From Anaerotruncus sp. (GTDB lineage Bacteria; Bacillota; Clostridia; Oscillospirales; Ruminococcaceae): a stretch of DNA of 64,000 nt. The stretch is from positions 4,372 through 68,371 of the forward strand of contig JAETRV010000006.1 of NCBI GenBank assembly GCA_021770005.1, given 5' to 3'. The translations under genes were made by a program, and so were the position numbers. Under the pieces are notes generated by a model. It was not told where the DNA came from and searched no databases. It saw only the letters and a program-made list of their open reading frames with translations. Of this stretch, positions 22,603-45,268 are shown piece after piece (the first letter of the stretch is position 1; every line of letters begins with the position of its first letter).

Positions 22603-22679
<77 letters not shown>

Positions 22680-22871: not shown

Positions 22872-24160
22872 CTACTGTGGAGTGTCCCTACTCGGTTCCT
22901 CTGTCCCCGGAAGGAAACCGCTCATCCGGTCGATGGCCTTCCGCTTTTCATCGTCCAGCACATGAGAGTACCGCTCGGTAGTGACGATGGAGGAGTGGCC
23001 CATAAGGTTCTGGATGATGCGAATGGGGACATTCTGCTCCATCAGTCGGGTGGCGAAGGTATGCCTGAGTGCGTGGACATTGACCCCTTGCAGCTCGCAC
23101 CGTTTGCAGACCGCCTGTACCCGTTTCTGGTAGGTTCGGGGGTCGGTGTAGATCCCCCGCTTGGAGGGGAAGATGAGGTTTTGGGGATTGGGCTGTCCCT
23201 CGTGAAGCTGAACCTGCCGGTGGAGCATGAGCAGCCGCTAGATGTTTTCATAGACCGGCGTTTCCCGGTTGCTGGTTTTGCTCTTAGGGGTCTCCTGGAG
23301 GATCAGCTCGGTCTTTTTGCCGGATGGGTCGTCAAAGAGCTGCACCCGTTCCAGATCCTTGCAGATACGGATGGTCCGCTTCTTCTCGTTGAGGTCGCCC
23401 CACTCCAACGGTAATATTTCCCCATCCTCGCCCCCGTAAAGAGGGAAAGGAGCATTGCCACCCGCAGGCGCTCGGAGAAGATTTCCTTGATGAAAATTTC
23501 CATCTCCTCCACCGTCAGCACCCGGCGTTCGGTGGGCTGAACCTCCGGGAGCCGAAGCTCGGCGGCGGGGTTTTCAATGATGATCTTCCCCCTGGCTTTC
23601 TCCAAGGCGGCATTCAGCACCACGAAGATGTTGTAGATGCTCTTGGGAGAAAGCCCGCCTTTCCTGTCCAGTCGCCCATTGGTTTGCAGAAAGTTGAGAT
23701 AGGTCTGCATATCAGCATCGGTCACTTTGTTCAGCGGCGTCTGGCCGAAGAAGGGCAATATCTGTGTCTGGTAAGTCTGCATATAGGAAGAATAAGTGGT
23801 GCGCTTCACCGAAGGCGGGGTCTTGTAGGTCTGGATAAAGTACAGCACCCAGTCGGAAAGGGAGATGTCTATGTCGATCCCCGCCGGGGGTTTCAATCCG
23901 AGGGGCGCACCTGCCAGCATCCGGTAGGCTTCCTGCTGGCGCTGTCCCCGAATTTCCTTCACCCGTTTCAAGAACTCCTTGTACTTTTTGGCAAGCTGCT
24001 CCTCGGTCTTGCCGGTGAAGGTCACCCGCCGGTATTTGTCGTTCTCATCGGTCTCATATTTCTGGAAAATGAGGTATCCATCCTTGCGGAGATAGAGGGT
24101 GCCGCCCTCGAAAATCTTGGCGTGTTTGGACGAAGGCGTGTAGCTTTTACTTTCTGCCAT
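22872..24160 (-). pseudogene. int: tyrosine recombinase/integrase, disrupted
   Basis: The N-terminal part is ORF 23303..24160 and the C-terminal part is ORF 22872..23228 (HALRHTFATRL...LMGHSSIVTTERYSHV). The frame is lost in the G4 run (plus-strand C4 at 23420-23423), where ...GARMG should continue EILPLEWGDLNEKKRTIRI... There is also an in-frame TAG at 23240-23238. Confidence 0.8.
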
Positions 24161-24829: not shown

Positions 24830-24867
24830 AACGAGTAAGGTCGATTTGGGGCAAGGTATGTACCCGA

Positions 24868-27284: not shown

Positions 27285-27292
27285 AAAGAAAA

Positions 27293-27315
27293 CCGGCTGG
27301 GGATACCCCAGCCGG
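27293..27315 (-). terminator. terminator ending operon A
   Basis: Stem ccggctgggg/ccccagccgg with loop ata, followed on the minus strand by UUUUCUUUUU. Confidence 0.65.
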
Positions 27316-27396
27316 AAACGCAAACCCGCGTTTTGTATAGCCCCTGCTATATAAGCCTTTGGAAAACAGCCGGAGTACCAGCTATTTTCCTGCCCT

Positions 27397-28341: not shown

Positions 28342-28364
28342 AGAGATACGCTCCTTTTCTTTGG

Positions 28365-29441: not shown

Positions 29442-29461
29442 GAAAAAACCTCCTAATACTC

Positions 29462-29579
29462 ATTTTCGATAAATCGAAAATACGCACGCTTCGCGTGCTG
29501 GTGTCGCTTCGCGCCACCCCGTCTCATCGAAAATCCAATCAAGCAGTTTTCGGTAAATCTGATTTTGATTGGATTTTCG
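29462..29579. repeat. cluster of four inverted repeats with TTTTCGRTAA-type motifs (candidate ori/ssi or RNA element)
   Basis: ATTTTCGAT-aa-ATCGAAAAT at 29462-29481; gcacgc-ttc-gcgtgc at 29484-29498; ggtgtcgc-ttc-gcgccacc at 29500-29518; 15-bp perfect arms cgaaaatccaatcaa (29528-29542) / ttgattggattttcg (29565-29579). Confidence 0.6.
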
Positions 29580-31425
29580 GATAACTGGCTTTTTTGAGGG
29601 GGGCGGGGGCCGACTGGCCGGGGGTCACAACAGAGAGGGGCGCATTGGGCACCACCCTGGCCAGCAAGATCTGGTCCGGCAGCTTGGGCAGTCCGGTGAT
29701 GCTCTCCACATCGTCTATAAAGACGGGGTAGCGCCGCCCGGTGAGCCGCTTCATCAGCTGGGAGACCTCCAGGCCCGCCCGCAGCTTCTCCGAATGGGAA
29801 AGCCGCCGGTAATCCCTGCCGTTAAACTGAAAGCGGAAGGCGCTTTTCAGCTCCCCGGTGGTCTTCACCAGGTCGTAGAGAGAAATTTTCACCTGGGGCA
29901 TGGAGAGGCTGGCAAAGGAAAGCTCGTTTCGCACCGCCAGATAATTGACCGCGGCGCTCATCAGCAGCTTTTTTTGCCGGATCAATTCGTCCACTTCCTT
30001 TTCGCGGGCGTCCAAATCGGGGCCCGGCCGTGCGGCGACCTTCTCCAGAGCGGCCAGTTCTTCCTCCGCCTCCTGTTTCCTGGCGTGGAGCTCGGAAAGC
30101 CGCCGCATCTCCTCATCGTCCAGGTTTCCATAGGTCAGGCTGGCGTTATGCCCTTGGATTTGGCTGTCCAGAGCAGAAAGGGCTTCTCCGTGTTCCCGAA
30201 GCTCCTGTTCCATCTTTGCCCGCTGCCCGTGCAATCGGGCCAGCAGGGCGGCGTTTTTCTCCACATCTTCCTTGTGGAATTGTTCAAAGGTTTCCTGCGC
30301 TTGCTTTTCCAGTGCGGTCAGGTCGTTCAGCTGGGAACGCAGTCCCTGGCCTCGTGAGGTGACTTCCCCCAGCTTTTTGCGAAGATTTTCCTGAGCCTGG
30401 GCTACCGCATCAGCCGGGAGCGGCTGTTTACAGGTGGGGCAGATCGCGCCTGGCTGGGTACGGGAGAGCAGGACGCTTACCTGCTTATGCTCCGCCGCCG
30501 CAGCCTGGAGCGCCGCCTGAGTCTCGGCCAAAGCAGCGGTGAATTTGCCCTCGTAGCTTTTCACCCGCAGCCGTTCCTGGGCCAGCTCCGCCTGGCGCAG
30601 CTGTTCCAGCAGTTCCGGAGGAACCTCCTCCGGCTTGTCCCGAAGCAGCTCCTCGTACCGCTGGTGCAGCCCTTCCAGCTGTTTTTCCAAGGCGGGGCGG
30701 TCGATACCGGCCTCCCTTTTCTGTTCAAGAATGCTGATCTGGGCTTCAAGCTGGGCCAGCTGTTCCTTGCCCTGGGAGATAGCTTCCCTGTTTTCCTTCT
30801 GCTGCCGGAGCAGCTGGACCTTCTGGCCCTCCAGCACCAACTTTCCTTCCTCCAGGTCCCGAATTTCTTCCCGCATGGTTTTCAGAAAGGTCTCCGGCGA
30901 CAGGAGAGAGACATTCTCTAAAAGGGTCTGTTCCGGCTCGGCGAGCCGTTCCAACACCGCCTTGTGGTCGATGAGGGGAAGGTTTTTCTGAAGGAGAGTC
31001 TGTCCATCGTTCCCCAGCGTTTCAATGAAATAGAGGGGATTGAAGATGGAGAGAAATTCGTCCCGTTCCCCGAACATTCTGGCAAGGTCGGCCTGCCGGA
31101 TGGCGTAGCCGTCCCAGGTGACCTGCATCTTGTCCCGTTTCCGGGTGCGGACCAGCTCGTGGGAAACTCCCTTGTCGTCCTTGATCCAGAGGTGAATTTC
31201 AATGTCCGGCAAAGTCTCACAGTAGAGCTTGTCGATATGGGCCCCGCCGAAGCGGTCCTGGCCGGTGACAGCAAAGGCGATGGCATCCGCCACCGAGGTC
31301 TTTCCGGCGTGATTGGCTCCGGTGACAAAGCTCACCGGGCCGAAGTCGAAGGTCTGCTCCTCCCGGAAGCACTTGAAGCCGGAGACGGATAAACTGGTGA
31401 TTTGAAACCCGCTGATTTTTTCCAT
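29539..31425 (-). CDS. Rad50/SbcC-like SMC-family ATPase with coiled coil and CxxC hook
   Basis: ORF 29539..31434; ATG 31425 has AAGGAG 8 nt upstream. Walker A GANHAGKTS, a long heptad-rich middle containing GAICPTCKQPL, and a C-terminal VFIDDVESI (Walker B/D-loop). Confidence 0.7.
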   Translation of the reverse strand: MEKISGFQITSLSVSGFKCFREEQTFDFGPVSFVTGANHAGKTSVADAIAFAVTGQDRFGGAHIDKLYCETLPDIEIHLWIKDDKGVSHELVRTRKRDKMQVTWDGYAIRQADLARMFGERDEFLSIFNPLYFIETLGNDGQTLLQKNLPLIDHKAVLERLAEPEQTLLENVSLLSPETFLKTMREEIRDLEEGKLVLEGQKVQLLRQQKENREAISQGKEQLAQLEAQISILEQKREAGIDRPALEKQLEGLHQRYEELLRDKPEEVPPELLEQLRQAELAQERLRVKSYEGKFTAALAETQAALQAAAAEHKQVSVLLSRTQPGAICPTCKQPLPADAVAQAQENLRKKLGEVTSRGQGLRSQLNDLTALEKQAQETFEQFHKEDVEKNAALLARLHGQRAKMEQELREHGEALSALDSQIQGHNASLTYGNLDDEEMRRLSELHARKQEAEEELAALEKVAARPGPDLDAREKEVDELIRQKKLLMSAAVNYLAVRNELSFASLSMPQVKISLYDLVKTTGELKSAFRFQFNGRDYRRLSHSEKLRAGLEVSQLMKRLTGRRYPVFIDDVESITGLPKLPDQILLARVVPNAPLSVVTPGQSAPAPLKKASYPKIQSKSDLPKTA

Positions 31426-31455
31426 GCTTTTCACTCCTTTGGAAATATCAGGTCC

Positions 31456-32252
31456 TTACGCGGCGATCTCATAGCTTTCCAGCAGATTGACCACCTCGTT
31501 GTTTCTGCCCCGCTGCTGATTCAGCCGCACATTCCGCAGGCAGATGCCCTGGGCCAACTGCCGGTCGTCTCCGGGCCGCAGGCAGACGATCTGCCGCCCC
31601 TGCCGGTCGCAGAGGCTGAGGGCGGTGAGTTTTCCGTCCGGGGAGAGCTTCCTGTCTTGAACGGTGTAATCGAAGGTGAAGGAGCCGGACTTGGCCGGTT
31701 GGAAGGCGGAAGGTGCTGCCGCCGGTCTGGGCGCAGCTGTTCCTTGGGGCGCCGCCTTTTGCGGTGCTGGGGCTTTCCCCTGGAGCATCTGGGTGTACCT
31801 GGCGTCCAGGGACTTGCGTCCTGTCTCGGTGATGTAACAGTTTTTCCCTTCTGTTCCACATCCACCCAGACAGCGCCCAGGGAGTAGAGGTACCGGCCAA
31901 TGCCCCACTGGACAGCGGCCCGCTTGAAGGAATCGGAAAGCCCGCCCTTCACCGGCTCGATGTCGCTGTTCTCGGCCCCGTCGGTCTTGGTGACCCACTC
32001 CTTGCGCTCCTCATCGTAGATGGAGAGGGCACAGAGCTGGGAGCCGTTGCCGATCTGGTGCCAGGGGGCAAAGGTGGTTTTCCAGTGGAAGGGCCCCACC
32101 GTTTCGTCCAGCCGCTTCTGGATGGCCCGGCTGGTGATGAAGGCCACCGCCAGCCCCCGGCTTTTGTCCTGGGTGGTCTGTTGGATGCGCCACTCCACAT
32201 CCTGCGCCTCAAAGGGGGCGGTCAATTTCTGGATCAGTTCCTGCTCATTCAT
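31456..32252 (-). CDS. Rad52/Rad22-type single-strand annealing protein; the reading frame needs a -1 shift at 31848-31842
   Basis: The N-terminal part is ORF 31521..32252 (FEAQDVEWRIQQT...GLSDSFKRAAVQWGIGRYLY). After ...VDVEQKGK the zero frame becomes Arg/Pro/Ser-rich, while the -1 frame (ORF 31456..31998) reads NCYITETGRKSLDARYTQMLQ...NLLESYEIAA. Confidence 0.65.
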
Positions 32253-32265
32253 GGGGAAACTCCTT

Positions 32266-32928
32266 TCATTTCAGAAAATCCTTCAAAGTCCGCCCGCTGG
32301 GGATGAGGACTTTTTCGTAGTAGTGATCCGGTTCCTTATCCTTCATATATTCCAGAAGATCCCGGTGCCCCAGCTTCAGCTGGTTGTTGCGTGAGGTAAA
32401 ATGGTCGTCGTTGTTGGGCATCTCCAGAATCAAGTAGGGCAGAGAGGACAGGGTGTGCAGGCTCTTGCACTCCGGCAAGACATTCCCGCCGGTACACAGG
32501 TGAAAGCCGCTGACATTGGAAAAAGGGTAGTGGAACATGGGGGTGTCCGGCGTCAGCCGGCCCTCAGCCACTACGCCCATCTGGCAGTTTTGCACCCGCA
32601 GCCCCATATGCAGGCCAAAGCGGAAAACCAGCCTTGGTAGGGGAAAATGGGGATACACGGTATTCCCATAGGTGATGTCTGCGTATCGGGCCGGGTGTTC
32701 GATGGAAACGGAACGATAGCCGTTATTTCCGGCGTCAAAGGAGATGCAGCCTGTGGGCAACAGTCCGCTTTGGACCATTTCCCGCTGCAAACTCCCCTTG
32801 ATGCACTCCACCAGGGCGTTATACCCGATGCGCTTGGTGATGATGCTCCCCTCTGAGGAGCGGCTCTCCACCTTGATGGTGGCGGAGCCTGGGTCGATGT
32901 GTAAAATCAGTTCTTGTTCGGGGTTCAT
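32266..32928 (-). CDS. E2-like (UBC-fold-like) protein, putative
   Basis: 220 aa. FHYPFSNVSGFHLCTGGN resembles the HPN...Cys active-site strip of ubiquitin-conjugating enzymes and prokaryotic E2 families. Same operon as E1 and JAB. Confidence 0.45.
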   Translation of the reverse strand: MNPEQELILHIDPGSATIKVESRSSEGSIITKRIGYNALVECIKGSLQREMVQSGLLPTGCISFDAGNNGYRSVSIEHPARYADITYGNTVYPHFPLPRLVFRFGLHMGLRVQNCQMGVVAEGRLTPDTPMFHYPFSNVSGFHLCTGGNVLPECKSLHTLSSLPYLILEMPNNDDHFTSRNNQLKLGHRDLLEYMKDKEPDHYYEKVLIPSGRTLKDFLK

Positions 32929-33539
32929 CAGGCGGCCTCCTTCCAGTTTTCCGGTCTCGGCAACGGCAGGTAGAGGACCTTCGCCTTCCGCTCCCGGTCA
33001 TACTTCCAGATCTCATACCGCAGCTCCTCCACCATATGCTTGTAATAATCGAAGATATGGGCGAGGGCTTTTAACAGAGAAAACTCCTGGTTGAACTCCG
33101 GGGAGAGGTAAAGGGTGATCCCGCTGGCCCACCGGTGGTTGACTTTCGTGCTGTAACGGTAGGTGTAATAATAGGAATATAGGCTGTCCAGCTGTTCCTC
33201 CAGCTCCGTCTTTGCCTGTTCCATATAAGGATTTCGCCGCAGGGGGACTCCTCTTTGTCTGGACCAATCCCGGCACAGGCGGTAAAAATCCATCATGCTC
33301 CGGTGGCTGAAAAACCAGCAGGTATCCATATAGGGTCCAACCTCTCGGCATTTCCAGAAGTCACAGACAGTGGTCACTCCCTCGATGATGTAGGAGTAAT
33401 AATCCTCCGCCACGATTGGCAATGCGCCGATCCCTTCCAGGTAATCCTCTTCCCTTCCGGCGTCGCTGAGGACCTTGCCGACCAGGATGGGGATGGGGAT
33501 AAGGCTCAGCTCAAAATTCTCATACTCGTAATCGTCCAT
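32928..33539 (-). CDS. hypothetical protein (aromatic-rich, 203 aa)
   Basis: GAAGGGGG RBS. Its stop overlaps the start of the E2-like gene (TGATG). Ends ...NWKEAA. Confidence 0.55.
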   Translation of the reverse strand: MDDYEYENFELSLIPIPILVGKVLSDAGREEDYLEGIGALPIVAEDYYSYIIEGVTTVCDFWKCREVGPYMDTCWFFSHRSMMDFYRLCRDWSRQRGVPLRRNPYMEQAKTELEEQLDSLYSYYYTYRYSTKVNHRWASGITLYLSPEFNQEFSLLKALAHIFDYYKHMVEELRYEIWKYDRERKAKVLYLPLPRPENWKEAA

Positions 33540-33552
33540 CCCACAGCCCCCT

Positions 33553-33858
33553 TCAGCAAAAGGCCCGCCGGAGGCTTTGGGAAATCGACCGACTGCAAAG
33601 CTGCCGGTTCATTTCCCATAAATAGAAGCGGCGATGGTAGTGGATCTTCGCCCCGTCCAGCAGGTCGTATAGGTCATCCAGGGTGAACCGGGAGTAGTCG
33701 ATTTGCTTGGGGATCAGCGGCTCTCCGTTCAAAATGGGGGAACAGACAGCTTCCATTAGGTAAGGGTCTATCTCTGCAAACTCGTTTTCGGCGGTATCCT
33801 CTGAGGTATCTTCCAGCAGCTGCCGGAAGGTCTGGGAATTTAATTCATACATTTTCAT
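33553..33858 (-). CDS. hypothetical acidic protein (101 aa)
   Basis: AAGGAG RBS directly after the methyltransferase stop. MKMYELNSQTFRQLLEDTSEDTAENEFAEIDPYL... Confidence 0.5.
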   Translation of the reverse strand: MKMYELNSQTFRQLLEDTSEDTAENEFAEIDPYLMEAVCSPILNGEPLIPKQIDYSRFTLDDLYDLLDGAKIHYHRRFYLWEMNRQLCSRSISQSLRRAFC

Positions 33859-33864
33859 TCTCCT

Positions 33865-35283
33865 TTATGCCAGCGCCTTGAAGCCGGCGGCGGTCAATAT
33901 GTGGAACACCATCTTGTTGGTCTGGGTCTCGGTGATCTCGGTCACCAGTGGTTTCCCTGTCAGGGCGTCTGTGCTGGTGACATGAGAATCGGTGAGCTGC
34001 TCCTTGACAATCCGCCCCTTGATGATATGGGGGCTGTCGCAGGGCATGAGGCCGTTAATGAGGCCGGAGCCGCCGATGAGTCCCACCTGTCCCACTGTCA
34101 GGGGGAGGGGCGGGCGCTTTTCTTTGCTATCCAGAGGACTTTGTTCCAATAGTTTTTTGAAGCTGTCCGATAGTTTTTTGAAGCTGTCCGAGGCGGCAAG
34201 CTGCCTTGCCAGCTCCGGGACATTGAACACCGCCCCCTTGAAGATGGGAACCTTCTCCGGGTGGGCGGGCAGCGGGTAGCTTTTCTCCGGCAGCTGGGTC
34301 AGCTCCGGAATTTTGTCCGCATCCTGCACCTGCCGGAGCAGGCCAGGGACCTCCTTGGAGCCATTGTCCCGTGGCTTGTGGATGCCCAGCACCGCCACCT
34401 GGCGGAACCGCTGGAACTCCGTGCCGCAGAATTTGTACACCGAGAGCCGCTCAAAGTTGTCGCAGAGGATGCGGGCGATGTCGGCGGTCAGCCGGTAATA
34501 GGGGATGATGTAGACCAGCAGGCCGCCCACCATGAGGTGGGAAAAGCTGTTTACCAGGAACCGCTTTTCATCCCGGCCGGTCTGGCCGTTCTTCCCCAGC
34601 ACCGAGAGGTAGGGGGGATTGAGGAACAGGGCGTGAAACGCCTCGTGACTGATCCGGGCGCTGAAATAGCTGCCGATGGCCACCCGGTGGAGCCTGGTCT
34701 GGGCCTCCTCCGCCCGGCGTTCGTCCAGCTCTACCCCGTAGGCGTAGCAGTTGTTGCCGGTGGCCATGAGGCGCAGGGCGATGCCGTCCCCGCAGCAGGG
34801 GTCCAGAAGGTTGGTGGTCACCCCGTCAGGAAATTCGATCCCCTTGGTGATGAGCTTCACATGGTCCGGGTCGGTGGGGTAAAATCCCATCCTCACATGG
34901 TTCATCAGCCGCCCGATGATGGCGGCGCTGGCGGTCTTATCCCCGGTATCCGGCATCCCCTTCACAAAGGCGGAGAGGGTGTCGCAAAGCCGGGAGTAGT
35001 CCGGGGTGGAAAGCTGGAACTTCGCCACCGCTTTCCCCAGGCCAAGGGCCGCAGCCGCCAGGTCGGGCAGGGAGAGGCGGCAGTCCTCCAAAGCGGCCAG
35101 CAGGCAGGCTTGATGGGAGCGCAGCGTCTGATACCAGTCCTTGGCCCCGTTGGGGTCTTTTTTCAGCTGTTTCTCAATCTTTTTCCTGGCGGCGGGCATT
35201 TCCTCCTTTGCCAGCAGGATGACCCGCTTGGACTGTTCCAGCCGGTCTACGGCGTATAGCTGCTGTTCGTTGACTTCTTCCAT
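33865..35283 (-). CDS. SAM-dependent N6-adenine (NPPY) DNA methyltransferase-like protein with a long C-terminal extension
   Basis: 472 aa. Motif I is LLDPCCGDGIAL and motif IV is LFLNPPY. Contains a 21-bp tandem duplication (SDSFKKL x2). Confidence 0.7.
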   Translation of the reverse strand: MEEVNEQQLYAVDRLEQSKRVILLAKEEMPAARKKIEKQLKKDPNGAKDWYQTLRSHQACLLAALEDCRLSLPDLAAAALGLGKAVAKFQLSTPDYSRLCDTLSAFVKGMPDTGDKTASAAIIGRLMNHVRMGFYPTDPDHVKLITKGIEFPDGVTTNLLDPCCGDGIALRLMATGNNCYAYGVELDERRAEEAQTRLHRVAIGSYFSARISHEAFHALFLNPPYLSVLGKNGQTGRDEKRFLVNSFSHLMVGGLLVYIIPYYRLTADIARILCDNFERLSVYKFCGTEFQRFRQVAVLGIHKPRDNGSKEVPGLLRQVQDADKIPELTQLPEKSYPLPAHPEKVPIFKGAVFNVPELARQLAASDSFKKLSDSFKKLLEQSPLDSKEKRPPLPLTVGQVGLIGGSGLINGLMPCDSPHIIKGRIVKEQLTDSHVTSTDALTGKPLVTEITETQTNKMVFHILTAAGFKALA

Positions 35284-35365
35284 CGTTAGAAACCTCCTAT
35301 TACAAGGAGGGGCAGGATCAGATGACCCAGCCCCTCCGATTTTTGCCCCAAATGGGTGTTTTCTT

Positions 35366-35974
35366 TTATGCCGCCAGCTCCTGAACAGGCTGGGCCTCCT
35401 CCTGGATGCGGGAAACGATGTAGCCCTTTTCCCGCAGGACTTCCAGAATGGCAGATACCAGCTCGCTATCCGGTTCCGGCTTTGGCGCAGGCTCCTTTGG
35501 CAAGGAAAGCACCGGCTTTTTGGCCGCTTTTTTCTTCGGCTTTATCATCCTGCGGAAAGGCGCAGTCAACAGCCTTTTCAGCCCGGACAGCAGCTTATTG
35601 GGGAGATACCGGCGCAGGCTCACTACCTCCTGGGCGGTGCAACTGCCGATGTTGGAGCGGTTCACCACCAGCCGCTTAGCCGAGACCTCCAGCGCCTGGA
35701 CAAAGTTCTTGGCGCAGAGAGTTCCTCTGGCCTTGCAGGTGGTGGCGTACAGTTCCCCAAAGGCCCCGCCGCCGATCTCCTCCTCCCGGATAAAGCCGGT
35801 ACGGAGGTTGACGGTATCCGCCTCCAGGCGGCGGGCGTCTACGATTCCCCGGCCCAGAAGCCGCCGAACCTTGAGGGTCCCGTTTACCTTCAGAACACCG
35901 TTGACAACCAGAGTATCCGTGGAAAGGATGCTGTAAAGGGCTGTCTTCCCCTTTTCGATGGTAATGGTTTTCAT
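35366..35974 (-). CDS. hypothetical protein: N-terminal beta-rich repeat region (bactofilin-like impression only), Lys/Pro linker, small C-terminal domain
   Basis: 202 aa. ATGA overlap with the E1 stop. LVVNGVLKVNGTLKVRRLLGRGIVDARRLEADTVNL... Ends ...VQELAA. Confidence 0.5.
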   Translation of the reverse strand: MKTITIEKGKTALYSILSTDTLVVNGVLKVNGTLKVRRLLGRGIVDARRLEADTVNLRTGFIREEEIGGGAFGELYATTCKARGTLCAKNFVQALEVSAKRLVVNRSNIGSCTAQEVVSLRRYLPNKLLSGLKRLLTAPFRRMIKPKKKAAKKPVLSLPKEPAPKPEPDSELVSAILEVLREKGYIVSRIQEEAQPVQELAA

Positions 35975-36744
35975 CTCCTTTTTTCTTTAATCGTAGGCCG
36001 CATATTGACGCTGGTGGTGGAAAAGGAGACCGCTTGGACATTGGTTTCCCCTCTCACCAGGATGTTGTAGACCAGAGCTACCACTGCGCAGGCCGCCGTG
36101 ATGTTGGCGGTAATGGCCTGTGGCGCCGAGACTGAAGCCTCGGCACAGGAAAGCTCGGTGGGGAACTTGTCGGTTCCGTCTAAGATTTCGGGGTACAGGG
36201 CCCCAACCGGCTTGTGGCAGGTGCGCCCGCCGCTGCGGACGCCGCACACCACCTGGCCGGTGTACTCCCCGTTGCCGCTGTCGATGTACACCAGGTCTTT
36301 CATCTGATAGAACACCTTATGGCAAAGGCTCCGGGACTTGTTGTTGTCCACCGCGCCGATGAGGATGACCAGCTCGGTGAGGGTTTTGTCGTGCCATTTC
36401 CCCTCTGAATAATACTGGCCGGTTTTCCAGATACGGGGCGTCACCAGCTTTTTCAATTCCTCTTCACTCTCAATGTAAGCGGGGATGTACTCGGTTTCCA
36501 GGCCAAAGACGGAGGAATACCGCTCGGCCAAAACCTTGGCTTTGTTTTCCCCTAAGTCCGCCTCAATGAAGTTCTGGCGGACCAGGTTCTTTTTCTCCAC
36601 CAGGTCGCCGTCCACAATGAGAAAACGGCAGTTTTCCTGGTCCAGCGCATAGAGCAGGCGGTAAAGGTGGGGGGCGATATGGCCTCCGGTGCCCCCTGCC
36701 CCCAGCATCACGATCTTGACCGGGCGATTTCGGGAAAATCTCAT
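35971..36744 (-). CDS. ThiF/MoeB/E1-like adenylyltransferase
   Basis: 257 aa starting from ATG 36744. MRFSRNRPVKIVMLGAGGTGGHIAPHLY...FLIVDGDLVEKKNLVRQNF carries the GxGxxG and D.D..E..NL.RQ motifs. As sequenced it is also the C-terminal part of ORF 35971..38175. Confidence 0.8.
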   Translation of the reverse strand: MRFSRNRPVKIVMLGAGGTGGHIAPHLYRLLYALDQENCRFLIVDGDLVEKKNLVRQNFIEADLGENKAKVLAERYSSVFGLETEYIPAYIESEEELKKLVTPRIWKTGQYYSEGKWHDKTLTELVILIGAVDNNKSRSLCHKVFYQMKDLVYIDSGNGEYTGQVVCGVRSGGRTCHKPVGALYPEILDGTDKFPTELSCAEASVSAPQAITANITAACAVVALVYNILVRGETNVQAVSFSTTSVNMRPTIKEKRR

Positions 36745-38133
36745 GCCGCCATCGCCCCTTTCAGGGTGAAACCGTCTTCCTCCCCCGTGATGGGGAAGGA
36801 GTCTTCCAGCAGTTGTATCCGGTTGCTCCACCAGTCGGGGAATGCCTTTGGCACCCCCCTCCAGCACATCGCCGGGGTGGATGGGCAGGAAAGTCCCGCC
36901 GTTGCAGATCCGGGCGGATACCTCCGGGAAGTATTGATCCAGCCGGCCCATGACGAGGTACAGGCAGTTTCCCTTCTCGTCGGCGTCGTCAATGCTGGAA
37001 AACTGGGCTGCCATGGAGTTATGCGAGTGTATATCGGCGTAGTAGATCAGCCCGTCCTCCTTCTCCGGGTCGATGGGGATGTCCGCAAAGATGCGGGCCT
37101 TGCTCACCTTCTGGTGGGGGATGTCCAGCAAAAATCTTTCCTCCAGCCGGTTCCAGTAGACCCGGACCAGGGCTTCGGTCTCGGCCCCGTCCCGCATACA
37201 GGAGCGGAAGAAGCCAATGACCTGCTGCACCAGCTCAAAGGGGATGAGGGGAAGGTTGGAATAAAAGCCCTCCCGAACTTCGCCCAATTCTGGGATTTCT
37301 TTTGGTCTGGTGATGAAGCGGCCGGACTCCATACAGCGAATTTCATACACATGGCCATCCCTGGCCGGGACAAAGTTGATGACCTTGGGGGCCTTCTCCA
37401 TCTCCTCCAGGGAGGAAAAAAGACCCTTATACGAGGCGATGCCCTTGGACTGGGCGGCGATGTGGGGGCGCACCTTGCAGGTGAAGTCCCTATCCTTGGC
37501 CTTTTTCAGCATATCCCGGAAGCCTTCGGACTTTTCTATCTCCGCCTTCATGTCGTGGATAACGGAGTCTTTGGGCTTGGGGATGGTTTTGGTGATCTTC
37601 CCGTACTCCATCGTCCAGGAAACACGCTTGCCATCCTCCAATTCGGGGAAGTCCGTCTCCTTCTCCTTGCGGAGTTGCTCAAAGGTCTTTTTCGAGTCGG
37701 TGATCTCCTCCGTCACGCCGCTAAACTGGAAAACCGGCGGCTTTTGGAGCAGTTCCCCGGCAAGGTCCTCGGTAATCTTTTCCTCCACCTGGCGCATGGC
37801 TGCCTCAAAGGGGTTTGCGGGCGCAGCAGACGGTTTGGCTGCCGCCTTGGGAGCCGCAGGCTTTTTTTCTGGGGCAGCGGCCGGTTGGGGCGGGGCTTCG
37901 GGTTCTTTTTCTTCTGGGACATTTGCATCCTCCTTCTTTTCTTTGGGCTCCGGCGTTTCGGCAGGGGCCTCTTTGGGCTGGGCGGTTTCTGTGGTTTCCG
38001 GAGCTTTTTCTTCCGGGGGCTGGGGCGCCGGTTCCTTCTCCGCGAACAGGGCGTCAAAATCCTCCCTGCCGCTGCCAAGGTCCAGGCTGCCCTCTCCTCC
38101 GAAAATCGCCATGAAATCCATGTTGTCACTCAT
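36741..38133 (-). CDS. JAB/MPN (JAMM) metallopeptidase with a long N-terminal region. The native C-terminus is in another frame: one extra G in a G6 run fuses it to E1 as sequenced.
   Basis: ATG 38133 has AAGGAGGA upstream. JAMM motif HSHNSMAAQFSSID (HxHx7Sx2D) at about 37029-36988. Deleting one G at 36854-36859 gives ...HPGDVLEG-VPKAFPDWWSNRIQLLEDSFPITGEEDGFTLKGAMAA-stop, and that stop forms an ATGA overlap with the E1 start. Confidence 0.7.
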
Positions 38134-38162
38134 TGTGTTTTCCTCCTTCTTTGTTTTGGGAC

Positions 38163-38205
38163 AAAAAAAGACCACAGCCGGGCCCTTTTGGGCTGGCTAT
38201 GGTCT
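38163..38205 (-). terminator. intrinsic terminator at the 3' end of leader copy A, about 30 nt before the JAB start
   Basis: Minus-strand RNA reads agaccauagccagccc-aaaa-gggcccggcuguggucu followed by UUUUUUU. Confidence 0.7.
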
Positions 38206-38376
38206 TTCTGTCTGGTCGTATTTCGGTTTTCGTGTTGGACGGATTACGGCGGGGCGCACTGGCCCCTGGGGTCTTTCGCTCCTACCTTGGGCGGCACAAG
38301 GGGCCGCGCCACACTCCTACCTGAAATACAGGTCTATTTTAGCATGAGGAGGAGAGGGTGTACACTTGCACTTTTG
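38163..38376 (-). promoter_or_regulatory. promoter + ~165-nt structured leader + terminator cassette, copy A
   Basis: Extended -10 TGcTAAAAT (TAAAAT at 38341-38336). Conserved core contains two AGGUAGGAG repeats. Roughly 85-90% identical by manual alignment to 60061-60268. Confidence 0.65.
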
Positions 38377-38526
38377 AAAAATTTATTTCTCAATATGAAG
38401 AACAAAAGCGACGATAGGGTGATTTTTTATTTTTGTCTGTTGCGGTTACAGAGAGAACCTATCATAGTTCAGACAGTGCTTAACGATTGTGAATACCAGC
38501 TCTTAGCGCCTTTAATTGATACTCTC

Positions 38527-39864
38527 TCACCCGTTCCATCCCTCCACCCGAATGAGCAGCTGCCGGGTGTAGGTGTAAGCGCTGACCGGAAAATCCCGCA
38601 GATCTGCGGTGTTGGAACAGATCAGGTAGTCTACAACATTGCCTTCCTCATCGGTCACCACATCGCTGATCAGTACAGCATGTCTCCACCGGTCGGCCGT
38701 GCCCATATGGATAATATCCCCCGGCCTGCCTGTATCGTAGGGGGCGTCAGTGACCGCAACCAAACCGTAACCTCTGTTTTCTTTCGCATAGCTCAAAAAG
38801 TCCTCCACCGCCGACCAGGAGGCGGAGCGTCCCGCCGCTCTGGAGAGGTTGTCCGGGGTGCTGCCATACCACTTCCAAATACCGGGGGCAGAAATATCCA
38901 TGGGGATGCCTCCGGCCAGCAGGCACTGGGAGACAAAATTCTGGCAGTTGCCGCCGTTGCGGCTGTAATCCGGCCAGCTGCTGCTGCGGTCCCCTACCCA
39001 CTGACGGGCGTAGGCAACTGCCCTTTCCCGGTCATAGGGATGGCTGGCCGCCACCGCCTTTTCCTCCCCTTGGGAAAGACGCCGCGCTACATCCTCTCTT
39101 GCAGCTTCCAGCATCCGCGCGGTCTGTTCCTTGTAGTAGGCTTCCAGCTCCGTTAAGGACGGGGTCGAGGGAGAGGAGCGGCGATACGCATACCGCCCCA
39201 TCACAGTCCAATACAGGCGCTCCATCTGGCTGTGGGCCGTGACGGTCCAGCGATCCTCCCCCAAAGATGTCAGGGTAAATTGGTGATAGACATTTTTTTG
39301 CTCCGAATCCACTTCCGGGGTGGCCCGGAAATTCTGGATGCTGTCTTCCGACACCCAGAGGGTAACGGAACCGTCCTCCCCCTCCTCCAAATTCCGGCAG
39401 GTCAGCTCCACCTGATAGGAGAGCAGGGAAAGGTCGGCACGCTGCATCTTTCGTATCTCCACGATGTATTCCCAGATCGCCCGGTTCCCCAGCCGTTGGG
39501 CGTCGGCTCCGGGGGTAAAAAGATCATCCGGCTTTTGCAGCTCCAGCCCCGCAAGGGTGTCGTAGTATCGGGTCATCAGCGCCAGCACGATCTCCTGCTG
39601 CCCCAAAGTCATTTCCCCAGGGTCGGCAAAACCCACCGTTCCGATCCCCAACGGCTCCGGTGGGCTGTCTTCCGCGTCAGGTTCCTCCAGCGGCAATATG
39701 ACCGCCTCCGAAGCCGGCTGTTCCGACTGCGAAGAAGCGCTGTATGAAAAATCGGACCTTGGCAGGTCCGATCCCGAAGGAACAGAAGCGCATCCGGCCA
39801 AGGCTCCGGCCAGCAGCAGCGCGGCAAAATGTTCCAGAAAAGCTGTCAAAATAACACCTCCCAT
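38527..39864 (-). CDS. secreted lipoprotein with a C-terminal amidase/cysteine-peptidase-like domain
   Basis: ORF 38527..39873 (ATG at 39864). Lipobox LAGALAGCAS. The C-terminal part ...RNGGNCQNFVSQCLLAGGIPMD...WRHAVLISDV resembles the putative amidase domain family. Confidence 0.6.
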   Translation of the reverse strand: MGGVILTAFLEHFAALLLAGALAGCASVPSGSDLPRSDFSYSASSQSEQPASEAVILPLEEPDAEDSPPEPLGIGTVGFADPGEMTLGQQEIVLALMTRYYDTLAGLELQKPDDLFTPGADAQRLGNRAIWEYIVEIRKMQRADLSLLSYQVELTCRNLEEGEDGSVTLWVSEDSIQNFRATPEVDSEQKNVYHQFTLTSLGEDRWTVTAHSQMERLYWTVMGRYAYRRSSPSTPSLTELEAYYKEQTARMLEAAREDVARRLSQGEEKAVAASHPYDRERAVAYARQWVGDRSSSWPDYSRNGGNCQNFVSQCLLAGGIPMDISAPGIWKWYGSTPDNLSRAAGRSASWSAVEDFLSYAKENRGYGLVAVTDAPYDTGRPGDIIHMGTADRWRHAVLISDVVTDEEGNVVDYLICSNTADLRDFPVSAYTYTRQLLIRVEGWNG

Positions 39865-39889: not shown

Positions 39890-40393
39890 TTAATCCACCT
39901 CTCCCACGATATTTTCCTTCATGGCGGCCACAACATCAGGCTGATTCTCACAGTCACAGGGCAGGTGGGAAAAGACATTGATCAAAAGCTCCAGCCCTCT
40001 TTGAAGGTCCGCAACATCCTGATCGCTCAGCGCCTCCAGCAGCGGACGAAAACAGCTTGCGTCATGCTCCAGAAAATGCTCGGTGTATCCGGTGGCCTTG
40101 TCCGTCAGCCGGATGCGGATGATCCTGCGGTTTGTGGGATCATAGACCCGATCCACCAGCTCCTGTTCCACCAGGCGGTTTACCATGGCGGTCATCTGCT
40201 GCTTCTGCATTTTGGTCCACCTGGCCAGCTCGGACATGGTCATGATCCCGCCGCCCCACTGCAAGGTCTTGATGCAGTAGTACATCTCCAGGCTGATCCC
40301 CTCCTCCAAAAGCTGTTTGAACGGCTTCGCAACACGGTAATTCCACTGGGGCAGCAGCGTCAGAAACATCTCCTGTATTTTTGTAAAATCCAT
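39890..40393 (-). CDS. MarR-family transcriptional regulator
   Basis: 167 aa. Winged HTH ...MSELARWTKMQKQQMTAMVNRLVEQELVDRVYDPTNRRIIRIRLTDKATG. Confidence 0.8.
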   Translation of the reverse strand: MDFTKIQEMFLTLLPQWNYRVAKPFKQLLEEGISLEMYYCIKTLQWGGGIMTMSELARWTKMQKQQMTAMVNRLVEQELVDRVYDPTNRRIIRIRLTDKATGYTEHFLEHDASCFRPLLEALSDQDVADLQRGLELLINVFSHLPCDCENQPDVVAAMKENIVGEVD

Positions 40394-40461
40394 AAAATCT
40401 CCCTCTTTATTTCAGCATAGGTCTTGACAAAATATAAAGTTGACTATATACTTTCATTTAT

Positions 40462-40479
40462 AGTAAATCTCGTTTTACT
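40462..40479. promoter_or_regulatory. candidate MarR operator palindrome
   Basis: AGTAAA-tctcgt-TTTACT lies in the marR/MATE divergent intergenic region. A third AGTTTACT half-site sits 10 nt downstream. Confidence 0.35.
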
Positions 40480-40577
40480 GAATATTTTAGTTTACTGTAC
40501 TTAGATTATACGCGATATTTGCGGAAAAGGCAAGAGAAAAAATAAATTTCTCAAAAAATCTGTCTGGAATAGGGGGC

Positions 40578-41960
40578 ATGATCTTGACAGCAGAACATGA
40601 GGACCGCGACCTACATCTTATGGCAAGGGCGCCGGTCTCACAAGCGATCCTGAAACTCTCCATCCCAACGGTACTCAGCAACATCGTTTCCCTGCTCTAT
40701 AACCTGACCGACACCTATTTCATCGGCCTGTTGGACGACCCGGTGCAGCTGGGGGCTATCTCTCTGGCCTTCCCGGTGTTTATGCTCATCCAGGCCATCG
40801 GCAATGTCTTCGGCAACGGCGCGCCTTCCTACATCTCCCGCTGTTTAGGCGCCAAGCAGTATGACGAGGTAAAGCGGACCAGCGCCGTGTCGGTGTACAT
40901 CTCTTCCGCCGCCACCGTGGTACTCGGTATCGCTATCTTTCTCTTTATGGACCCCATCCTCCGCCTGCTGGGGACCAGCGAGGCCAACATCGGCCCTACC
41001 CGCGCCTATCTGGAAGTGATCGTCGCCTTCGCCGTGGTCATCATCCTGCAAGTCATCCTGTCCAGTATGCTCCGGGCTGTGGGCAAGGTGAAGGAGGCGG
41101 TGATCGGCATCATCGTTGGCACGGTGCTGAACATCGTCCTGGACCCGGTTTTCATCTTAGTGTTCCGTCAGGGTGTGGCGGGGGCGGCTATCGCCACCAT
41201 TCTCGGCAACCTTGTGGGGGTGATCTACTACCTGTTTGTTTACATCAAGAGGGAGAGTCCCCTTTCCATCCACCCAAAGGACTGCCGCCCCAGCGCGCGG
41301 ATCTTCTCGGAGGTCCTGAAGATCGGCCTGCCCAACTCCATCTCTGTTATCATCATGAGCTGTTCCACCATCATTCTGAACAATCTGGCCTCCGGCTTTG
41401 GCGACCATGTGGTGTCCGCCTACGGCGTTTCCGGAAAGCTCATCCAGATGGTCTACATGATCGTGGTGGGATATGTCACCGGCTATATGCCCTTTGCAGG
41501 GTATAACTACGGCGCGGGCAACTTCAAGCGGATGCTTTCCGCCCTGAAATTTACCATGCTGTCCGGGACGGGGGTCTGTCTGGCGCTGCTGGTCCCCTTT
41601 GTCTGGCTCTCCCCGAACTTTGTAGGGGCCTTTACCACCGACGCGCAGATCATCGATGTGGGGGTCCGCTTTCTCCGGGCCCAGGCTTGGGCGGTCCCCA
41701 TCATGGCGGTGCAGACCACCATGATGGTCACCTTCCAGGCCACCGGGCAGGCGATCCGGGCCATGACCGTCAACATGGGGCGGCAGCTGCTGTACAATAT
41801 CCCCTTCCTTTTCCTGTTCAGCCATCTATGGGGCCTCGACGGACTGCTCTACGCCCAGATGGCGGCGGACTATTGTACCGTCATCACGGCGGTCCTGATC
41901 GGCATTCCGCTGCTTCGCAGCCTGTACCAAAAAAGCAAACAACAAACAGACGACCTTTGA
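40578..41960 (+). CDS. MATE-family efflux transporter
   Basis: 460 aa, 12-TM pattern. ...ILKLSIPTVLSNIVSLLYNLTDTYFIG... Confidence 0.85.
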   Translation: MILTAEHEDRDLHLMARAPVSQAILKLSIPTVLSNIVSLLYNLTDTYFIGLLDDPVQLGAISLAFPVFMLIQAIGNVFGNGAPSYISRCLGAKQYDEVKRTSAVSVYISSAATVVLGIAIFLFMDPILRLLGTSEANIGPTRAYLEVIVAFAVVIILQVILSSMLRAVGKVKEAVIGIIVGTVLNIVLDPVFILVFRQGVAGAAIATILGNLVGVIYYLFVYIKRESPLSIHPKDCRPSARIFSEVLKIGLPNSISVIIMSCSTIILNNLASGFGDHVVSAYGVSGKLIQMVYMIVVGYVTGYMPFAGYNYGAGNFKRMLSALKFTMLSGTGVCLALLVPFVWLSPNFVGAFTTDAQIIDVGVRFLRAQAWAVPIMAVQTTMMVTFQATGQAIRAMTVNMGRQLLYNIPFLFLFSHLWGLDGLLYAQMAADYCTVITAVLIGIPLLRSLYQKSKQQTDDL

Positions 41961-41974
41961 AGGAGGAAATTTTT

Positions 41975-43102
41975 ATGAACAAGAAGAAACTGGGCTTCGG
42001 CCTGATGCGCCTGCCGCTCCTGGACCCGTCTGATGTGACCAAGATCGACTACGAGACGCTGTGCAAAATGGCGGACCGCTACCTGAAGGCGGGCTTCAAC
42101 TACTTCGACACGGCGTTTCCCTATCACAACGGCGGCAACAGCGAGATCGCCTTCCGGGAATGTGTCGCCAAGAGGCACCCTCGTGACGCCTACACCCTTA
42201 CCGACAAGCTGAGCTTCTTTGTGGTCCAGAAAGCGGAGGAATTGGAGGATTTCTTTGCCGGTCAGCTGGAGCGGTGCGGCGTGGAATACTTTGACTACTA
42301 CCTGCTCCACTCCATGAACAAGGACTACCTGGAGCTGGCGGAGAAGATCGGCGCCTTTGACTTTGCCGCCCGGAAAAAGGCGGAGGGGAAGATCCGCCAT
42401 GTTGGTTTCTCCTTCCACGACAAGGCGGATGTGCTGGATGAGATTCTGACCCGCCACCCGGAGATGGAGTATGTGCAGCTGCAAATCAACTACGCCGACT
42501 GGGAGAATGCAGAGGTGCAGTCCCGGAAGTGCTACGAGGTGGCGGTCAGGCACAACAAGCCGGTGCTGGTCATGGAGCCGGTGAAGGGCGGACTGCTGTC
42601 CGATGTCCCGCCGGAGGCGGAGAAACTGTTGAAAAAGGCCCGCCCAGAATGGTCGGTGGCCTCCTGGGCGGTGCGGTTTGCCGCCAGCCTTCCTAATGTG
42701 GCGATGGTGCTGTCCGGCATGACCACCCCGGAGCAGATGGAGGACAACCTCTCCTACATGGACGGTTTCCAGCCCCTCACCGAGGAAGAAATGCAGCTTG
42801 TGAAAAGGGTCGCCGGGATCATCACCTCGAAGGAGACCATTGCCTGCACCGGCTGCCGGTACTGCGTGGACGGGTGCCCGCAGAAGATCGGTATTCCCGA
42901 CTTTTTCAAGCTGGTCAACGATGTGGATAAGTTCGGCGAGCGGCAGATCCCCCTTGCGAAAAACTATTACAACCACTATACGACTACGCTGGGGATGGGC
43001 AAAGCCTCGTCCTGTATCGGCTGTGGGCAGTGTGAGGAACATTGTCCCCAGCACCTGCCCATCAGGAAGCATCTGGAGAAAACCGCAGAAATACTGGAAT
43101 AG
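41975..43102 (+). CDS. aldo/keto reductase with a C-terminal 4Fe-4S ferredoxin-like domain
   Basis: ORF 41687..43102 trimmed to ATG 41975 (AGGAGG upstream). MNKKKLGFGLMRLP... Cys clusters CTGCRYCVDGCP and CIGCGQCEEHCP. Confidence 0.8.
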   Translation: MNKKKLGFGLMRLPLLDPSDVTKIDYETLCKMADRYLKAGFNYFDTAFPYHNGGNSEIAFRECVAKRHPRDAYTLTDKLSFFVVQKAEELEDFFAGQLERCGVEYFDYYLLHSMNKDYLELAEKIGAFDFAARKKAEGKIRHVGFSFHDKADVLDEILTRHPEMEYVQLQINYADWENAEVQSRKCYEVAVRHNKPVLVMEPVKGGLLSDVPPEAEKLLKKARPEWSVASWAVRFAASLPNVAMVLSGMTTPEQMEDNLSYMDGFQPLTEEEMQLVKRVAGIITSKETIACTGCRYCVDGCPQKIGIPDFFKLVNDVDKFGERQIPLAKNYYNHYTTTLGMGKASSCIGCGQCEEHCPQHLPIRKHLEKTAEILE

Positions 43103-43210
43103 CAGCTTGATTTTACGATCCGGTTATACGGCTTCGGAGACAGAAAGACGCAGTATCTGTACATTGGAGCCTGTCATAACAATAAAAAGGAAACACAGGA
43201 GGAACTTATC

Positions 43211-45220: not shown

Positions 45221-45268
45221 ATCCCGCCATCACAAGCTCAAAAGGGGCAGGAAAAAGGAGGTGGAAAA

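Follow-up and report, generated by a model that had tools for sequence, protein, structure and literature searches.

A one-nucleotide frameshift in a G6 run joins the reading frames of neighbouring JAB and ThiF/E1 genes in a clostridial mobile element

Introduction

In a 64,000-nt stretch of clostridial DNA (hereafter the window), a single minus-strand reading frame runs from a JAB domain into an E1 domain. Is this frame a natural two-domain enzyme, a pair of genes joined by a lesion, a genetic switch, or an error of the assembly? Mobile operons of E1 and JAB, with or without E2, were predicted by Iyer, Burroughs, and Aravind (2006, Genome Biol 7:R60; PMC1779556), and in their class 6e JAB is N-terminally fused to E1. 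A preliminary description of the locus, made from the DNA letters, read the frame as two genes fused by one extra G in a run of six. Here, we compare the locus with its homologues and weigh the possible origins of the sixth G.

Results

One extra G separates the fused frame from two overlapping genes

ORF 35971..38175 comprises 734 aa when read from the GTG at 38175. The ATG at 38133 is preceded by GAAGGAGG and is likely the true start, which gives 720 aa. In accordance, the gene call on an identical public contig has the same start and the same 720 aa. At the junction, the minus strand reads CTGGAGGGGGGTGCC, and its six G correspond to a plus-strand C6. Between the JAB domain and MRFSRNRPVKIVMLGAGGTGG comes the linker GGAKGIPRLVEQPDTTAGRLLPHHGGGRRFHPERGDGG. 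The segment GGAKGIPRLVEQPDTTAGR also lies within the 720-aa chimera.

The alternative frame (ORF 36741..36992) encodes VPKAFPDWWSNRIQLLEDSFPITGEEDGFTLKGAMAA and ends in a TGA that overlaps the E1 ATG (ATGA at 36741-36744). When one G is deleted in silico, the fused frame resolves into proteins of 463 and 257 aa. The C-terminus of the homologue P0126 is VPKAFPDWWSNRIQLLEDSFPI and those of P0003 and P0122 are ITGEEDGFTLKGAMAA, the same as the alternative-frame peptide. Because this peptide is identical to the C-termini of genuine orthologues, the frame shift is more than a chance feature of the DNA.

All sequence statements of the preliminary description on the fused ORF are borne out. Sequence and homologues agree that the 734-aa ORF consists of two genes fused by an extra G. 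The 463-aa JAB and 257-aa E1 proteins coupled by ATGA are reproduced on removal of the G, the overlapping frame ends as described at 36744-36741, and a second 4-nt coupling at 35974/35971 is likewise ATGA. Residues ~441-477, described as off-frame-like, match the 38-aa Gly/Arg/Pro/His linker.

Table 1 Features of the JAB–E1 locus and the surrounding element (window coordinates).
Feature	Coordinates	Strand	Evidence or remark
Fused frame as sequenced: JAB, 38-aa out-of-frame linker, E1; 720 aa	35971..38133	-	
Ancestral JAB/MPN+ gene, 463 aa after removal of one G	36741..38133	-	Prok-JAB, PRTRC_A, orthologues
G6 homopolymer, frameshift site	36854..36859	-	orthologues: G5 (GAG GGG GTG = E-G-V) or GGGAG
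Abandoned ancestral frame for the conserved tail VPKAFPDWWSNRIQLLEDSFPITGEEDGFTLKGAMAA, 37 codons + stop	36741..36853	-	now read as linker in the E1 frame
ThiF/E1 adenylyltransferase gene, 257 aa	35971..36744	-	PF00899, PRTRC_ThiF
Downstream gene, 202 aa, no family match	35366..35974	-	coupled to E1 by second ATGA (35971-35974)
DUF6094 DNA methyltransferase, same operon	33865..35283	-	PF19587 E 1.6e-116
E2-like protein, 220 aa, same operon	32266..32928	-	Prok-E2_D E 5.2e-5; PRTRC_B E 1.6e-5
Conserved leader 5' of the JAB gene	38134..38375	-	extended -10 (TGCTAAAAT), structured segment, terminator hairpin
Tyrosine integrase pseudogene, same element	22872..24160	-	1-nt frameshift + in-frame TAG
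tRNA-Met gene adjoining the integrase	22603..22679	+	probable integration site

Homologues encode JAB and E1 as separate genes

More than 100 homologues are stand-alone JAB proteins of ~460 aa. The nearest of them are 462-465 aa long, share 77-92% identity, and terminate in the alternative-frame peptide. None of the 440 homologues is a full-length JAB–E1 fusion, and the few chimeras among them are singletons with deletions or frameshifts. The 90% cluster that contains the fused protein otherwise consists of separate JAB proteins (463 or 497 aa) and E1 proteins (256-274 aa), encoded on dozens of contigs.

At the orthologous loci, JAB and ThiF are called as two genes with a 4-nt overlap, the junctions read RTGA, and the stand-alone E1 orthologues are 256-274 aa long. 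Ten loci have G5 at the site and L003 has GGGAG, vs G6 in the window. Distant relatives on Bacillales megaplasmids are two genes too, with an overlap of 4-8 nt. The linker has no counterpart among the 207 database representatives matched by a junction-spanning protein query, which align to E1 N-termini only, and no linker-bearing sequence was found in Logan, ENA, or JGI. Neither the fused architecture nor the junction is conserved among the relatives, as both would be in a natural JAB–E1 fusion. The comparison with orthologous elements, proposed in the preliminary description, thus gives G5 or GGGAG with separate genes, and the pattern that would speak for an old fusion, G6 with a conserved linker, is absent. 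On these comparisons, the fusion is the derived state.

The frameshift removes a conserved tail of the JAB protein

The ancestral JAB protein begins with a disordered N-terminus rich in Pro, Glu, and Lys, followed by a middle domain that is conserved and by a JAMM domain containing HSHNSMAAQFSSIDD. It matches PRTRC_A (E 4e-12) and Prok-JAB (E 2.9e-5), with a Pfam score of 24.3 bits, slightly below the cut-off of 25. HSHNSMAAQFSSIDD lies upstream of the frameshift and contains the HSHx7Sx2D motif of JAMM/MPN+ metallopeptidases, and an ortholog structure model has the MPN fold. Residues E319, H368, H370, S378, and D381 are invariant in an alignment of 76 sequences. The model matches the folds of Rpn11, JAMM1, and AMSH with a Foldseek probability of 1.0. 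It thus resembles the JAMM/MPN+ deubiquitinases (Rpn11, PfJAMM1, AMSH) in fold and motif, with TM-scores on the target of 0.5-0.68, but the identity is only 11-17%, and the JAB protein differs from them by additional domains at its N-terminus and by an FPxxW tail specific to its family.

In this tail, 76 homologues of 41-92% identity all have P431 and W434, and nearly all have F430 and V438. In the ortholog model, residues 426-440 have a pLDDT of 87-90, and residues 432-436 form a helix. The conserved C-terminal FPxxW helix is absent from the fused product, and its invariant residues are destroyed. Judging from conservation and model, the lost tail probably matters. The abandoned frame is still identical to the ortholog peptides, which suggests that the fusion event was recent.

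The E1 protein is complete. It scores 50.2 bits against PF00899 (cut-off 28.1), matches PRTRC_ThiF with an E of 9e-30, and contains the nucleotide loop GxGxxG as the Rossmann motif GAGGTGG, which begins at residue 15. The sequence GAAAGGGG sits 10 nt 5' of the E1 ATG.

The operon lies in an element with a damaged integrase

The 202-aa gene downstream of E1 has no family match in profile searches, and the scores of the E2-like protein for Prok-E2_D and PRTRC_B are both under the curated cut-offs. The terminator hairpin of the leader directly precedes the ribosome-binding site of the JAB gene. A second copy of the leader, 88% identical, is located at 60059-60268, and the leader has no Rfam match.

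The integrase gene is interrupted twice, by a frameshift of 1 nt at ATGGGGAAATA (~23385) and by a TAG in frame (~23215). After repair, it encodes 429 aa and matches positions 3-170 of the 172 positions of Phage_integrase (E 2.1e-27). With these lesions, the element appears to be immobilised and decaying. The tRNA-Met gene is the probable integration site. An att direct repeat of its 3' end was not found within the window.

An IMG/VR protein scan returned no relatives and thus no support for a phage origin, and megablast of the locus against PLSDB plasmids gave no match. Exact-protein look-ups of the E1, an amidase, a MATE transporter, and a PBP returned no record, probably owing to start-codon choice or to proteins present only on the window's own record. 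Elsewhere in the window, a suspected extra frameshift at 52531-53062 resolves into two plausible small overlapping genes, and suspected antisense-ORF artefacts (2.4-3.5, 7.8-9.3, and 43.1-44.3 kb) leave real genes intact on the other strand or frame.

Relation to known systems

The JAB, ThiF/E1, and E2-like proteins appear to be remote relatives of PRTRC proteins A, ThiF, and B. Like the PRTRC cassette (TIGR03735 protein A, TIGR03736 ThiF, TIGR03737 protein B), the locus has neighbouring JAB and ThiF/E1 genes on a mobile element and an E2-like gene in the operon, and PRTRC models are the best NCBIfam matches for all three proteins. However, the scores are all far under the curated cut-offs (A, 46.1 vs 101.8; ThiF, 103.8 vs 144.75; B, 24.4 vs 131.45), and no match to ParB or PRTRC C-F was found among the operon proteins scanned (27.4-38.1 kb). 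In addition, the host belongs to Clostridia, not Proteobacteria, and the JAB protein has an extra ~270-aa N-terminal region.

Type II CBASS, with Cap2 (E1-E2) and Cap3 (JAB), and the fused cap2_3 of the 6A-MBL system also pair JAB with E1. CBASS E1-E2 models and NF058523 match ~70 residues of the E1 Rossmann region weakly (E 1e-7 to 1e-9), but no CD-NTase or effector is encoded nearby, and the JAB protein has no PADLOC match. As in the operons of Iyer et al. (2006), JAB and E1 are functionally linked on a mobile element, and those operons include JAB followed by E1 in one polypeptide as a natural architecture. Unlike those fusions, the one described here results from a 1-nt frameshift, has a nonsense linker, occurs in none of the relatives examined, and has lost conserved JAB residues. 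The closest likeness is to ordinary frameshift fusions of coupled overlapping genes in decaying elements, with which it shares a 4-nt ATGA overlap, a 1-nt homopolymer indel, read-through, and an inactivated integrase. The JAB–E1 fusion belongs to this class of frameshift fusion and pseudogenisation, and nothing essential differs.

Discussion

The account that we favour, by a modest preference, is a genuine slippage mutation of very recent date in an already decaying element, degenerative or neutral and not an evolved regulatory device. The pair comprises the first genes of an operon in a mobile element, probably integrated at tRNA-Met, of an Oscillospiraceae-type genome. In the family, the two genes are separate and translationally coupled by the 4-nt RTGA overlap, so that the E1 frame lags the JAB frame by one base. 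In the present lineage, G5 would have become G6 in the GAG-GGG-GTG run, 38 codons before the JAB stop, and ribosomes would therefore pass from the JAB frame into that of E1. Among the alleles examined, the E1 frame is free of stops before the E1 ATG in this allele only. The resulting protein is predicted to have 720 aa, with JAB residues 1-426 followed by a 38-aa nonsense linker and the full-length E1, and it keeps the JAMM catalytic core. E1 would be made as part of this chimera, and its own ATG behind GAAAGGGG may additionally give it in free form. Since natural JAB–E1 fusions occur in other families (PMC1779556), a loss of function is not proven.

It is also possible, though rather less probable, that the organism truly has G5 and two separate genes, and that the sixth G is an overcall in a metagenome-assembled consensus. 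A second NCBI assembly (GCA_021771975.1, contig JAETNU010000043.1) matches window positions 24006-39254 at 100% identity including G6, with zero differences over 15,249 nt, and other parts of the window occur at 100% identity in the Logan assemblies of three SRA runs. However, records of the G6 allele are limited to two NCBI contigs (15,249 and 93,244 nt, one of which was compared with the window), and these may come from one project or the same reads, in which case their agreement is not independent. The window contains ~424 homopolymers of at least 5 nt, among them 20 G/C runs of at least 6 nt besides ~400 others; no other large ORF is nonetheless broken, and a 6-nt run is not a typical short-read failure. 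The absence of the linker from the 207 representatives speaks for an error, as do similar frameshift or deletion chimeras among database singletons (for example P0018, P0012, and L008, the last at 3.3x coverage), and the perfect preservation of the abandoned frame is just what an assembly error would give. The integrase frameshift, likewise in a G run, fits a homopolymer error equally well, but the in-frame TAG next to it is a nonsense substitution, which cannot arise in this way and argues for genuine decay.

If the mutation is real, the chimera could be active and maintained, a snapshot of how natural JAB–E1 fusions arose from overlapping genes; we consider this unlikely. The JAMM core (HSHx7Sx2D) and the entire E1 lie in one frame, another class of bacterial operons commonly has JAB fused N-terminally to E1 in nature (class 6e, PMC1779556), and a fused cap2_3 family is listed in NCBIfam. 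Moreover, in no other allele examined is the E1 frame open over this 38-codon stretch. Four orthologous alleles read AGT AAC or TCT AAT at the position where this allele reads AGC AAC; the orthologous versions create TAA, and the difference may represent a second, enabling change. An AGC codon is, however, expected anyway at a genome GC3 of ~0.75. The fused state is not conserved in any of the 440 homologues, the invariant tail residues are destroyed, no substitutions have accumulated since the event, and the element is losing its integrase.

The preliminary description had also proposed a contingency locus, in which a phase-variable slippage tract would switch between separate and fused enzymes. 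This is very improbable. The homopolymer does lie in a coding region, and in this allele both length states give long ORFs, but the tract has just 5-6 nt. Characterised phase-variable tracts usually have at least 7 nt. The other assembly of the strain that was compared also has G6, with no length difference, and the L003 allele breaks the run as GGGAG. When one G is added in silico to L001, L002, L003, and L007, translation stops after 9-13 codons without fusion; because the added G truncates these four orthologous alleles, the family does not conserve a fused ON state. Across the family, neither a tract of suitable length (G5 or GGGAG in the orthologues) nor meaningful products in both states were found. 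Two gapped-pattern scans of JGI metagenome contigs for G5 and G6 alleles returned no match and gave no population information. Nor do the orthologues have the conserved slippery site and trans-frame product of programmed ribosomal frameshifting: their tail lies in the zero frame, and stops close their E1 frame 5' of the E1 start. A -1 slippage on G GGG GGU, considered as a way to restore the JAB tail, would lead to a third frame, not the ancestral one. Of the three origins named in the preliminary description, the slippage toggle is thus set aside, and a real recent mutation, which we favour, and an assembly error remain.

The finding is an ordinary one, since a lineage-specific lesion or a sequencing error involves no designed switch. 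For annotation, the 720-aa "JAB-ThiF" protein is not to be taken for a natural domain architecture; it already links JAB and E1 proteins in one 90% cluster of a large protein collection. In the improbable case that G6 is real and the 720-aa protein is active, a single slippage event would mark the birth of a JAB–E1 fusion from ATGA-coupled genes. The use of AGC, a Ser codon synonymous with the AGT and TCT of the orthologues, would then have removed the sole stop in the E1 frame and enabled the fusion, and the locus would illustrate an evolutionary route to the natural JAB–E1 fusions of other bacterial ubiquitin-like systems.

In the literature on PRTRC and DUF6094/ThiF, we found no functional report for the JAB/E1/E2-like module, and no experimentally established function. 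This module, which occurs in clostridial mobile elements and on Bacillales megaplasmids, is a better target of study than the frameshift. If the frameshift is real, as we favour, it would provide a clean example of the fusion of coupled genes with a 4-nt overlap by a single indel, and a further sign that the tRNA-Met element is immobilised and decaying.

The JAB–E1 frame and its shift site

On the minus strand, the window sequence at the shift site is GATGTGCTGGAGGGGGGTGCCAAAGG, where the G6 run occupies 36854-36859. In the fused frame, an ATG at 38133 is preceded by GAAGGAGG and is also the start used by the public gene call on the identical contig; translation from there gives 720 aa, of which residues 427-464 are rich in Gly, Arg, Pro, and His. 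The adjacent frame, that of the JAB (JAB/MPN+ metallopeptidase) gene, encodes VPKAFPDWWSNRIQLLEDSFPITGEEDGFTLKGAMAA up to a TGA stop that overlaps the ATG of MRFSRNRPVKIVMLGAGGTGG (ATGA at 36741-36744), the start of the E1 (ThiF/E1 adenylyltransferase) gene. A second ATGA, at 35971-35974, couples E1 to the following gene. In silico removal of one G yields proteins of 463 and 257 aa. All coordinates and sequences that the preliminary description gave for this frame are correct on re-reading of the window.

Features of the window and of the JAB/E1 operon
Feature	Position	Strand	Remarks
Fused ORF	35971..38175	-	734 aa from GTG
Tyrosine integrase pseudogene	22872-24160	-	Adjoins tRNA-Met, 22603-22679 (+)
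Conserved leader	38134-38375	-	Before JAB operon
Conserved leader, second copy	60059-60268	-	Before helicase/DnaN-like operon
Cargo genes	39890-49949		~10 kb, metabolic/cargo, between JAB operon and second operon; MarR, MATE, aldo-keto reductase/Fer4, DUF362-like, ArsP permease, DXP-synthase-like, transglutaminase, ECF S-component
Second operon	50018-60024		SNF2-like helicase, DnaN-like clamp, sigma factor, DUF3268, MoxR/RavA-like, VWA/ViaA-like, SSB, DUF3848
202-aa protein			JAB/E1 operon; function unassigned
DUF6094 methyltransferase			JAB/E1 operon
220-aa protein			JAB/E1 operon; weak Prok-E2_D and PRTRC_B similarity
Rad52-like protein			JAB/E1 operon
SMC/Rad50-like ATPase			JAB/E1 operon
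Primase-like protein			JAB/E1 operon
DUF6744			JAB/E1 operon

JAB and E1 are separate in relatives

The 720-aa query returns 440 homologues. The top ones (462-465 aa, 77-92% identical) align to just the JAB part, 60% of the query, and their C-termini correspond to the alternative-frame peptide of the window: VPKAFPDWWSNRIQLLEDSFPI is present in database homologue P0126, and ITGEEDGFTLKGAMAA in P0003 and P0122. The chimera is the link that joins the JAB and E1 families into one 90% cluster, whose remaining members, from dozens of contigs, are separate JAB (463 or 497 aa) or E1 (256-274 aa) proteins. JAB and ThiF are two called genes with a 4-nt overlap in eight orthologous loci, the ortholog junctions being ATGA or GTGA, and two annotated genes with a 4-8 nt overlap in remote relatives carried by Paenibacillus and Alkalihalophilus megaplasmids. 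The shift site reads CTGGAGGGGGTGCC (G5) in ten orthologous loci and GGGAG in locus L003; L006 also has GGGAG, but is a degraded remnant only. A few more two-domain chimeras exist in the database (P0009, P0010, P0012, and P0018), each a singleton that has internal deletions or a frameshift of its own. Sequence comparison shows the fused state to be derived. The proposal in the preliminary description that one extra G has fused two genes is thus supported by the separate homologues, the alternative-frame C-termini, and the G5 orthologues.

The L006 remnant (4001-4250, MGBC143783 contig) is a short degraded JAB 3' end inside unrelated sequence, with its own 1-nt deletion in a G run ahead of FPDWW. 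Among database singletons or near-singletons, P0018, from a relative at ~50% identity, has an independent frameshift leading from JAB to E1, P0012 a deletion plus frameshift, P0014 an E1 fused to a homologue of the 202-aa downstream gene, and P0118 an E1 joined with a DnaN-like protein; accidental fusion seems to be a tendency of RTGA-coupled genes. In L007-L014, the loci encoding P0004, eight independent assemblies of a related element all break ~590-640 nt into the ThiF gene, and the junctions of P0009 and P0010 likewise lie within E1. The breaks in L007-L014 suggest that E1 contains a repeat or a mosaic/recombination boundary.

Identity of the module and consequence of the shift

The repaired 463-aa protein matches Prok-JAB weakly (E 2.9e-5), and among NCBIfam models PRTRC protein A fits it best (E 4e-12). 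PF00899 (50.2 bits versus a cut-off of 28.1) identifies the 257-aa protein as ThiF/E1, which also matches PRTRC ThiF at E 9e-30. Because every PRTRC score of the module is well under the curated cut-off and no ParB-like protein is seen among the operon proteins scanned, the module is classed here as PRTRC-like rather than as a PRTRC member. No established function of such a module was found in the literature.

An AlphaFold2 model of P0003, the closest intact ortholog, was made from a 76-sequence alignment (mean pLDDT 74; >85 across most of residues 130-440). Foldseek matches the C-terminal domain of the model to Rpn11, PfJAMM1, and AMSH (probability 1.0). The N-terminal ~105-130 aa of JAB (36741-38133, minus strand) are disordered and rich in Pro, Glu, Lys, and Ala, with pLDDT <55 to residue 110 and a predicted helix from 107. 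The middle domain (~130-290) is conserved and confidently modelled, with many invariant residues (including F150, R154, W172, and Y176) and no family assignment.

The family motif (V/I)xE(G/S)xxxxFPxxWxxxV follows the shift site directly. In the 76-sequence alignment (41-92% identity), P431 and W434 do not vary, and F430 and V438 hardly do; in the ortholog model, residues 426-440 reach pLDDT 87-90 and include a short helix (432-436), and only the last ~20 residues of the tail are disordered. The frameshift therefore removes a structured conserved element, not a floppy tail. The JAMM core, with its motif HSHNSMAAQFSSIDD upstream of the frameshift, and the complete E1 are retained. The E1 ATG has GAAAGGGG 10 nt upstream, so E1 may to some extent also be made in free form from its own ATG.

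Integrase, leaders, and repeats

The element's integrase carries a 1-nt frameshift (between ARMG and EILPLEW) in ATGGGGAAATA at ~23385 and an in-frame TAG (ENI*RLL) at ~23215. Once repaired, the 429-aa protein aligns to Phage_integrase positions 3-170 of 172 (E 2.1e-27). No att repeat of the tRNA-Met 3' end was found within the window, and the window ORFs scanned showed no T4SS or relaxase genes.

The two leader copies are 88% identical, and the leader (~215-240 nt) also lies upstream of the JAB genes in L001, L003, and L007. Its elements are an extended -10 (TGCTAAAAT), a structured stretch rich in G+C, and, directly before the RBS, a strong terminator hairpin (GACCATAGCC...GGCTGTGGTCTTTTTTT). 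An Rfam search gives no match even at E <= 1. The leader may control the element operons through attenuation or antitermination. Intergenic G+C-rich repeats at ~7800-8240 and ~18270-18800, whose spurious translations resemble each other (RAVLR.RG..PLPVGPTP), probably represent a dispersed repeat of REP-like type.

Origin of the fused frame

We lean, by a modest degree, towards a real mutation, degenerative or neutral, as read from the assembled contigs. NCBI contig JAETNU010000043.1 (GCA_021771975.1, 15,249 nt) matches window 24006-39254 at 100%, with no mismatch or gap and the same G6, and the fused protein occurs on two NCBI contigs, the longer of 93,244 nt. Other parts of the window are matched at 100% identity by the Logan assemblies of SRR13008596, SRR13008615, and SRR13008619, indicating that the window consensus is accurate and that the strain is present in several runs. 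The window holds 20 G/C runs of at least 6 and ~400 further runs of at least 5, yet its long ORFs are intact. Since the integrase nonsense substitution is no homopolymer error, the element carries genuine inactivating mutations. An assembly error at G6 is the less likely account, though one to be taken seriously: the two NCBI contigs may derive from a common source, the linker-bearing sequence was not found in Logan, ENA, or JGI, the flawless ancestral frame is the appearance expected of an error, and both frameshifts (JAB–E1 and integrase) sit in G runs.

Phase variation of the tract, the slippage toggle raised in the preliminary description, is highly improbable. The tract is short, 6 nt in the window and 5 nt or interrupted in orthologues, and the one other readable assembly of the strain is also G6. 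An additional G simulated at the same place in the distinct alleles of L001, L002, L003, and L007 meets a stop after 9-13 codons in each, mostly a TAA from AGT AAC or TCT AAT (Ser-Asn codons), and would truncate JAB rather than fuse it. The window allele (AGC AAC) is the only one keeping the E1 frame open, which is unremarkable given a genome GC3 of ~0.75. A selected, functional fusion is also unlikely. Mobile bacterial operons encode E1-like proteins fused to or beside JAB, and in one operon class the JAB domain is on the N-terminal side of E1 (Iyer, Burroughs and Aravind 2006, PMC1779556). Therefore, a JAB-then-E1 polypeptide is not exotic, and by analogy the chimera could in principle work, but nothing marks it as a fusion that is being maintained. 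We regard the event as most probably an ordinary frameshift within translationally coupled genes belonging to a PRTRC-like module, to be annotated as two genes plus a frameshift and not as a new JAB–E1 architecture.
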